The notes: generated by a model not told the origin, from the letters alone. DNA of 64,000 bases from Candidatus Latescibacterota bacterium (GCA_965116885.1 OZ220741.1:1856001-1920000); one strand, 5' to 3'. Numbered from the stretch's first letter, positions 40,620 to 41,365 are shown. Numbers and translations: made by a program.

Positions 40620-40819
40620 ATCCGAAAAGAGACGCGGAGCCTGAAGGCTTTCTGGCTGTGAGTCTTTGTTTGCTCTGAGGTTTGAAGCTCAATGGTCTGG
40701 TGCTTTGCCGGACGTTATGAGCGTCACCCCCTCAAGAGGATGGCTTTTACAGATACCATGGTCTGGGCTATGCTCCGTCACCGAAGCAGTCGCACTTGCT
40801 CCCCTGTCTCCTTTCGGAT
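40620..40819 (-). ncRNA. Candidate ~200-nt structured RNA downstream of the DIP1984-like gene
   Basis: 14-bp closing stem (ATCCGAAAGGAGAC/GTCTCTTTTCGGAT), GNRA hairpin, four more hairpins, A/C-rich periodic tract. Confidence 0.6.
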
Positions 40820-40825
40820 GGTTGA

Positions 40826-41365
40826 TTATTGTTCGTCTTGAAAGGCTACTATGGCGTCAAAAGATGCTGCTCGTAGCTTTCTGTTTAACGCCCGAAAAGC
40901 CAACCGCACACGTTCAAGGTCCTGGACGCTGTCGGGGTATGACAATTCGTTGGGTTCTACAATGTCGCGGTCTTCTTTGTAGATTACCCGCTGGTATGCC
41001 GCATCCACGACTTGCGTGTGTAGTTCGCCGATTTGTACATTCAAACCTTTTCGCAATTCCAGCGCCTCGTTGAGGTTGATGGTGTCGCCATCATGTTCCA
41101 TCTGGTGCTGAAAATTGGTCTGCTGAATGGCACTGTTGAGCTTGCGCCGTTTGTATTCCAGCGCTTTGATCTGATCGCGTACTTCAGTGGTGTCAAACCC
41201 GGGACTGGGGCGATATTGGCCCTCTTCATCGCGATTGAAAAATGACCGATTGCGATTTTGCCTGGTTTCTGACTGGCAATCTTTCAGGGTTTTGATTCTG
41301 GCATCGTATTCAGCCCTGAGTTCCAGAGCTTCATAGAGGTAGAGTTTGTTGTTTTCGTCTGGCAT
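40826..41365 (-). CDS. DIP1984/DUF6847-like coiled-coil protein (179 aa)
   Basis: AAGGAG RBS, ATG 41365; internal repeat LxEALELR...RxLNxx(I/L)xxx(N/S)F twice. Confidence 0.75.
   Translation of the reverse strand: MPDENNKLYLYEALELRAEYDARIKTLKDCQSETRQNRNRSFFNRDEEGQYRPSPGFDTTEVRDQIKALEYKRRKLNSAIQQTNFQHQMEHDGDTINLNEALELRKGLNVQIGELHTQVVDAAYQRVIYKEDRDIVEPNELSYPDSVQDLERVRLAFRALNRKLRAASFDAIVAFQDEQ

Follow-up and report, generated by a model that had tools for sequence, protein, structure and literature searches.

A DUF6847-like gene and the pseudoknotted RNA at its 3' side form a widespread bacterial module and probably an RNA-protein particle

What is the role of a long, elaborately folded RNA that begins a few nucleotides after the stop codon of a small stand-alone gene? 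The question is raised by a locus in the window, that is, the whole 64,000-nucleotide stretch of Candidatus Latescibacterota DNA analysed here. The DUF6847-like gene lies on the minus strand at positions 40826-41365 and encodes 179 aa followed by a TAA stop codon (40826-40828); on the same strand, the structured RNA, which is 200 nt long in the window's genus, occupies positions 40620-40819 and begins 6 nt past the TAA. The first-pass annotation had placed the two elements at the same coordinates, and it was also right that the unit runs opposite to its neighbours, a PhyH-type dioxygenase gene and a sulfatase gene. Upstream of the DUF6847-like gene, a region conserved within the genus (41366-41481, minus strand; mean identity 90.8%) presumably comprises the promoter and the 5' UTR. 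The reading that we prefer, with a probability of roughly 0.6, is a two-part module, in which the protein and a pseudoknotted RNA of about 200 nt come from one unit and assemble into one particle, with a protein oligomer docked on an array of slots in the RNA.

The RNA is closed by a stem, P1, formed by a 14-nt inverted repeat (40620-40633 and 40806-40819) whose arms are 93% complementary and lie 172 nt apart, in agreement with the 14-bp closing stem that had been noted earlier. The 5' strand of P1 is AUCCGAAAGGAGAC (40806-40819, minus strand) and the 3' strand is GUCUCUUUUCGGAU (40620-40633, minus strand). The general part of P1 is only GGAGAC with one or two further base pairs, the long extension being specific for the genus, and the core of the RNA, from GAGAC to GUCUC, measures about 182 nt. 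The folding energy of a 236-nt stretch is -74 kcal/mol, as compared with -59.2 +/- 4.7 kcal/mol for dinucleotide shuffles (z = -3.1), and none of the 200 shuffles was as good.

The same fold is retained among homologues. In the MAFFT alignment of 64 RNA sequences (63 distinct), RNAalifold recovered the closing helices P1 and P2 as well as P3, the GNRA hairpin, and 17 of the 26 pairs are compensatory. For the full scheme including pseudoknots, 89.3% of the cells are paired; shuffles reach 78.0%, none of the 500 attaining the observed value, and changes on both sides are seen in 23 of 34 pairs; when the partners were shifted by 1-3 columns as a control, pairing fell to 35-45%. P2 joins GGAGC (40798-40802, minus strand) to GCUCC (40636-40640, minus strand), with 100% of the cells paired and three of the five pairs compensatory, and the 7-bp hairpin P3 (40771-40788, minus strand), capped by the GNRA loop GUGA, has compensatory changes in all seven pairs. 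Both elements had been proposed by the first-pass annotation, P2 as a GGAGC/GCTCC extension of the closing stem, and both are backed by covariation.

The interior of the RNA contains two pseudoknots. In pseudoknot 1 (40740-40765, minus strand), the loop AUGGU of a CAG(A)/(U)CUG stem pairs with GCCAU downstream. The CAGA/TCTG pairing suggested earlier (40750-40765) is present, though CAG/CUG itself hardly varies. At least three Watson-Crick pairs in a fixed register are formed in 61 of 63 sequences, in 24 versions of the stem; the observed mean is 4.0, and it becomes 2.86 +/- 0.11 when the 3' strands are swapped between sequences. Counts for the pseudoknot stems use the fixed register, as an unconstrained search in each sequence is noisy, and those for helices 4 and 5 are lowered by one clade that MAFFT misaligned in pseudoknot 1. 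In pseudoknot 2 (40711-40729, minus strand), GGG/CUC is interleaved with GACG/CGUC and followed by a conserved CGG; its consensus is GGG/CCC interleaved with GAYRN/NYRUC, both stems covary, helix 7 is compensatory in 4 of 4 pairs, and the register is assigned automatically in about 37 of 63 sequences, the window sequence having been threaded by eye. Two adjacent hairpins had initially been drawn at 40711-40742; they are better read as this H-type pseudoknot. A further hairpin, AGCC-TTCA-GGCT, had to be abandoned: it is not conserved, GGCU being a part of the 3' strand of P2 and AGCC the last of eight AGC repeats.

G-U pairs are frequent at positions where the opposite strand would read C-A, hence the folded strand is the gene strand, as the earlier preference for the minus strand implied. 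The RNA element occurs once in its own 5.56-Mb genome and thus is not a dispersed MITE. The alternative of a MITE or an integron attC site was rejected because of this single copy, the tolerance of G-U pairs on the gene strand and the conserved pseudoknotted interior. The gene and the RNA are gained and lost together. An intrinsic terminator was also considered and rejected, as the window has no U run here and no terminator-like site between 40300 and 41700, consistent with the initial impression of far more than a terminator. At the E <= 1 level, cmscan against Rfam 15 yielded no matches in positions 38000-46000 of the window. Neither were Rfam matches found in 15 loci with type A RNAs (the two types are defined below) and in seven more loci, of which five are of type B with a gene, one is of type B without a gene (L135) and one is of type A (L194). 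The RNA represents a large class, well supported, that is missing from Rfam and present in many bacterial phyla.

If the gene and the RNA form one module, each should be found with the other. A scan with one genome per species yielded 80 loci with the gene, from Latescibacterota, Desulfobacterota, Chloroflexota, Spirochaetia, Gemmatimonadota, the PVC group, Acidobacteriota and others. The RNA was detected directly downstream of the gene in 73 of them by nhmmer; with the divergent versions in L094 and L096, which nhmmer missed, the number is approximately 75. Among the other loci, L076 combines a full gene with no more of the RNA than the tail and the 3' closing strand, L050 has lost the 3' end of the gene and the 5' half of the RNA while keeping the 3' part of the latter, L091 and L099 are truncated genes, and L098 and L100 end at a contig edge. 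The distance from the stop codon to the P1 core is 4-24 nt in 67 of 72 loci. The covarying structure is thus kept directly 3' of homologous genes. Vice versa, when metagenomes were searched with a 21-nt pattern of the RNA core, 80 loci were found, and in 76 of these a gene ends 8-22 nt upstream. The exceptions are one locus with too little upstream DNA and three without an intact gene: in L179 the RNA is decayed, L135 is of type B, and in L194 the gene is reduced to its last residues. No third gene is conserved across the 80 gene-bearing loci.

The same tendency is observed at a shorter evolutionary distance. Of 41 related genomes, ten have the full gene and the same ten have the full RNA; in the genus itself, both are full in the same ten of 21 genomes, the window's own included. 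Several relatives retain remnants: in G017, one 748-bp deletion took the RNA and most of the gene, leaving a gene remnant, G007 has only an N-terminal remnant of the gene, and in G006 the RNA is reduced to its 3' 116 nt. Nucleotide identity within the genus is highest for the RNA (97.4%), lower for the gene (94.0%) and lowest upstream of the gene (90.8%); the borders of the RNA are sharp, and its tail is nearly invariant across nine species.

In G014 (loci L011 and L022), an insertion of about 146 nt as estimated by eye, with hairpins and short repeated GTAG flanks, separates the gene from the RNA, leaving 163 nt between the stop codon and the P1 core, and the RNA is intact. The same junction is seen in a metatranscriptome contig (X4 record 10).

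Three loci had been assigned to archaea, namely L054 (binned as Thermoplasmata), L092 (Methanophagaceae) and L034 (Bathyarchaeota). However, the contigs concerned are short (2.3-3.1 kb) and have near-identical counterparts in Desulfobacterota: L054 is 99% identical to L040, L092 is 95% identical to L047, and L034 is 85-89% identical to L043, L044, L047, L038 and L040. We do not claim archaeal hosts; the labels probably reflect binning errors or the partner bacteria of consortia.

The gene lies tail-to-tail with a PhyH-family gene both in the window (39628-40482) and in a second Latescibacterota clade (L058, L065, L067, L068, L070, L073). As the same neighbour is found in two clades whose proteins are only about 59% identical, this suggests that the module has long resided at one chromosomal site in Latescibacterota.

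Contigs from RNA libraries, originating from four runs in four studies, cover both the gene and the RNA at 90-99% identity, and two of them bridge the gene and the RNA (X1 record 1 and X8 record 15). The latter ends exactly at 40620, which is a hint at most. Being contigs, these data do not resolve a discrete RNA and are blind to its ends and levels, and the libraries may contain DNA. Transcription of the gene probably produces an mRNA whose 3' end is this RNA.

Such an arrangement could also be produced by a purely cis-acting 3' UTR element, which would terminate, stabilise or feed back on its own mRNA and form no lasting particle. A ribosome terminating at the stop codon would overlap P1 at the distances given above, the contigs span the gene and the RNA, and a run of at least four U within 16 nt after P1 is present in 47 of 112 distinct RNAs. 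On the other hand, the 200-nt fold with its double pseudoknot, invariant joining bases and eight-slot array exceeds what termination or stability would need, the RNA is conserved more than the gene and stays intact when separated from it by an insertion, and the window has neither a U run nor a predicted terminator. We therefore regard a role in cis only as quite unlikely.

The 3' third of the RNA is the tail, a loop that begins at the conserved CCGG and reaches as far as the 3' strand of P2. Its length is nearly fixed, 64-69 nt in 60 distinct sequences. In the window, the loop (40642-40704, minus strand) comprises eight slots, AGC, ACC, AGC, ACC, AGC, AGA, AGC and AGC, each followed by 4-6 variable bases; this is the proposed docking array. 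AGC is by far the commonest triplet, with 5.5 occurrences per tail as compared with 1.4 +/- 1.2 in shuffled tails. In type A RNAs, to which that of the window belongs, AGC is located 9, 17, 25, 34, 42, 50, 58 and 65 nt from the 3' anchor, that is, with a step of approximately 8 nt, although slots 42 and 58 are weak and AGC is rare there. The same slots recur in 51 further distinct sequences from metagenomes. The tails of the PVC group have only two or three AGC. The variable letters are A/C-rich and G-poor and differ between clades.

A second version of the array is found in type B RNAs, which constitute 10 of the 80 metagenome loci and also include L096. These RNAs retain P1, P2 and the 5' core and have a different middle domain. 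Their tails carry U(U/G)AC at positions 9, 16, 23, 31, 38, 45, 52 and 59, so again there are eight slots, with a 7-nt spacing. The proteins encoded next to them are of the same length and framework and are 32-39% identical to the window protein. The helix-2 motif KRxKLNxxIQxxNF is common to both protein types, whereas helix 4 changes from FRxLNRKxRAAxF in type A to LRRLVxQxHAxNH in type B. Among 108 distinct pairs of protein C-terminus and tail, H-x-x-N-H in helix 4 is accompanied by a UUAC tail in nine cases and by an AGC tail in none, and LNRxxRxxSF by an AGC tail in 96 cases and by a UUAC tail in none, three tails being unclear; as related sequences are not independent, 9:0 and 96:0 overstate the number of independent events. 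There is no simple residue-to-motif rule, given that L094 combines AGC slots with a helix 4 ending in NH. Still, the pairing of motif and protein type is what a motif-reading protein would be expected to produce.

Since the motif type always changes with the protein subfamily, we read the slots as docking sites. If so, the module could work as follows. The gene and the RNA would be transcribed together, the RNA being the 3' end of the unit. P1, P2, the invariant joining bases, the GNRA hairpin and the two pseudoknots would form a rigid conserved core, which anchors both ends of a single-stranded loop of fixed length displaying eight short motifs. A protein oligomer, for instance four two-repeat protomers arranged as two dimers, would dock on the eight slots, and the motif together with its spacing would set which protein subfamily fits. 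The physical binding, its stoichiometry and the protein surface that reads the motif are what we infer here; observed are the structure, the gene-RNA linkage, the periodicity of the array and the concerted change of motif and subfamily. The DUF6847 match and fold of the protein, the covarying structure behind homologous genes, the lack of an Rfam match, the single copy, the linkage and the concerted change all lend support to the two-part RNA-protein module that the first-pass annotation had envisaged.

A different assignment of the same features is that the RNA is a ribozyme or a ligand-sensing RNA whose tail is bound by a host factor, the protein being a helper or itself regulated by the RNA rather than docked on slots. 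Invariant unpaired core bases are common to types A and B, and a GNRA loop with two pseudoknots is typical of compact catalytic or ligand-binding RNAs. But a host factor would leave the change of the motif with the protein subfamily unexplained, and no Rfam ribozyme or riboswitch is matched; we hold this assignment to be very improbable.

Oligomeric proteins that read several regularly spaced short motifs in single-stranded RNA, as we propose for the present one, include TRAP and HutP. There, the repeats are located in 5' leaders that control termination, and the proteins are beta-rich rings. In our case, the protein is a helical bundle, and the array is a closed loop in a large folded RNA situated 3' of its own gene. 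No sequence or fold match to TRAP or HutP was present among the PDB sequence and Foldseek results.

The partner protein had been assigned by eye to the DIP1984/DUF6847 group, and the assignment holds at the level of a distant relative. The Pfam family DUF6847 (PF20935) matches the 179-aa protein in two stretches with 29.6 bits (E = 7.9e-7), narrowly reaching the gathering cut-off of 27, and PF20935 is precomputed for most of its homologues. The curated cut-off of 70 bits for the NCBIfam family DIP1984_fam (NF038048) is missed, with 24.3 bits and E = 2.8e-5 over residues 10-168, which places the protein outside that subfamily. The AlphaFold2 model (pLDDT 85.4) comprises four long helices and short beta hairpins arranged as two repeats. 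Foldseek with this model finds 3kdq_A and 3kdq_C as the best matches (E = 5.7e-4, TM 0.68/0.79, range 0.65-0.79); 3kdq is the sole clear structural match, as the next one has E = 0.12 only. Judging by the predicted model, the protein has the DIP1984 fold. It has in common with 3kdq, a Corynebacterium diphtheriae protein of unknown function that represents the DIP1984 family, both this fold and the two-repeat helical architecture, although the subfamily studied here is longer (175-181 aa as compared with approximately 141-150 aa). A profile search of 1.84 billion representatives at E <= 0.001 yielded just 203 clusters at 50% identity, indicating a compact, separate subfamily. A literature search retrieved no description of an RNA partner for the DIP1984/DUF6847 family and nothing on this RNA. 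For the partner protein, PADLOC gave no match, PHROG only a weak one, the PDB sequence search nothing meaningful, and a scan of viral contigs no relative. A feature likeness of 0.94 to the 'Siphovirus Gp157 family' is a lead only.

Docking on the eight slots is proposed for an oligomer, and a four-copy model supports self-association of the protein. The self-association score is 0.51, the best control having 0.00. In the calibration, done with two copies rather than four, 20 of 30 proteins solved as same-chain pairs attain this value, as does one of 23 solved as single chains; our own alignment was used. Between runs, at least 67% of the contacts agree, the partner pLDDT is at least 76, and the confident contacts correspond to a symmetric dimer. 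The helix-4 positions distinguishing the two types (154, 158, 161-162 and 165) are placed by this model in the protein-protein interface and not on a free surface; if the model is right, this counts against helix 4 as the part that reads the motif.

Another interpretation of the array is that of a guide RNA with a noncontiguous code: the constant AGC or UUAC would be bound by the protein, and the 3-5 variable bases of all eight units would be combined to recognise a gapped target in foreign nucleic acid, either DNA or RNA. The alternation of constant with variable letters over eight units, the lack of conservation of the variable letters between clades, and the defence or mobile genes that often adjoin the module would fit such a role. 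A precedent is provided by VIPR, where a RAMP protein is reported to be combined with vrRNAs built of GGY/NN units, with many guides per locus (bioRxiv 10.64898/2026.04.26.720920). Our tails resemble vrRNAs in that constant letters alternate with variable ones at short, fixed intervals and differ from the VIPR system in having a helical non-RAMP protein, units of 7-8 nt, one RNA per genome and no target in the own genome. The single RNA per genome, with no guide array, speaks against a guide, as do the near-constancy of the tail over the nine species of the genus, the A/C-rich and G-poor composition of the variable letters, which fits an unstructured linker, and the fold of the partner protein, which is not that of RAMP/Cas7. 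In a gapped search of the own genome the best non-self match was 26 of 39, as compared with 25-27 for shuffled guides, although a guide against foreign DNA need not match there. On balance, guide function is unlikely.

One could extend this interpretation to the family as a whole and suppose that all members of the DIP1984/DUF6847 superfamily are RNA binders polymerising at eight sites on RNAs with a periodic code, with the module acting as a particle that can be programmed: the motif would specify the protein, and a nucleic-acid target would be read by the variable letters. This generalisation is speculative, and its odds are low; if true, it would provide a second, non-RAMP route to noncontiguous RNA-guided recognition.

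For the biological role of the module, the neighbourhood offers some indications. Toxin-antitoxin, nuclease, ATPase or transposase families account for many of the 121 ORFs that are nearest neighbours of the module; these neighbours include PIN, HicB, RelE, ParE, MqsA, TacA, Fic and UPF0175 genes and IS200-type transposases. In L037 and L041, tRNA-Ile genes are located just upstream. Because of the toxin-antitoxin and mobile neighbours and the patchy distribution, we favour an accessory, defence-like or addiction-like function over a housekeeping one.

The most direct version of such a function would be an RNA antitoxin or an abortive-infection pair, where the protein, harmful in its free form, is sequestered by the RNA and set free once transcription is lost. 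The patchy distribution with decay in some species, the neighbours of the toxin-antitoxin and IS200 type, and the two upstream tRNA loci are in line with this possibility. In type III toxin-antitoxin pairs, the RNA is located upstream of the toxin gene, with a terminator between the two, consists of tandem 34-36-nt repeats and is cut by the toxin, an endoribonuclease. Here, in contrast to such ToxIN-like pairs, the RNA is downstream, equal in number with the mRNA, highly structured and likely stable, and its repeats are of 7-8 nt; ToxIN-like toxins form a known endoribonuclease family, whereas DUF6847 is the only Pfam family of our protein, which has no PADLOC match, and no nuclease-like motif is conserved in both protein types. 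The apparent long vertical residence beside the PhyH gene in two Latescibacterota clades argues against a purely selfish element and also against an addiction pair of this kind, which we consider improbable.

Whatever its role, the module is real, widespread and uncatalogued, and its protein and RNA probably form an undescribed RNA-protein particle, as far as the sequence comparisons indicate. It offers a first way to approach the function of a protein family for which a crystal structure has been available since 2009 but no role is known. The two natural versions of motif and protein, with AGC every 8 nt and UUAC every 7 nt, constitute a ready-made natural experiment, and the recognition rule could be useful for tethering proteins to RNA in an orthogonal manner. 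Should the variable letters be read, this would be a new kind of RNA-guided system.

Several minor observations concern related genes and neighbouring DNA. Canonical DUF6847 genes, scoring 174-176 bits, are present in two genomes of the same phylum, L101 (G094) and L102 (G131), and also in the control genome of Deinococcus radiodurans. Downstream of L101 and L102 there is no obvious periodic RNA and no tRNA, but with only two close relatives the comparison has no power. The DNA downstream of canonical DUF6847 genes contains the T-arm-like GGGTTCGAGTCCCAC, in which ARAGORN calls no tRNA. An arrangement confined to one lineage is seen in five loci of the PVC group (L078, L079, L080, L088 and L089), where the order is a capH-like HTH gene, the DUF6847-like gene, the RNA and the gene of a conserved 375-aa protein, for which no Pfam, PADLOC or PDB sequence match was found. 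In the window itself, a 499-aa ORF at 42845-44344 (plus strand) has no Pfam match at E <= 1e-5. At 44382-45506 (minus strand), 3.5 kb off and unrelated to the module, there is a TnpB-type gene with OrfB_IS605, Cas12f1-like TNB and HTH_OrfB_IS605 domains.
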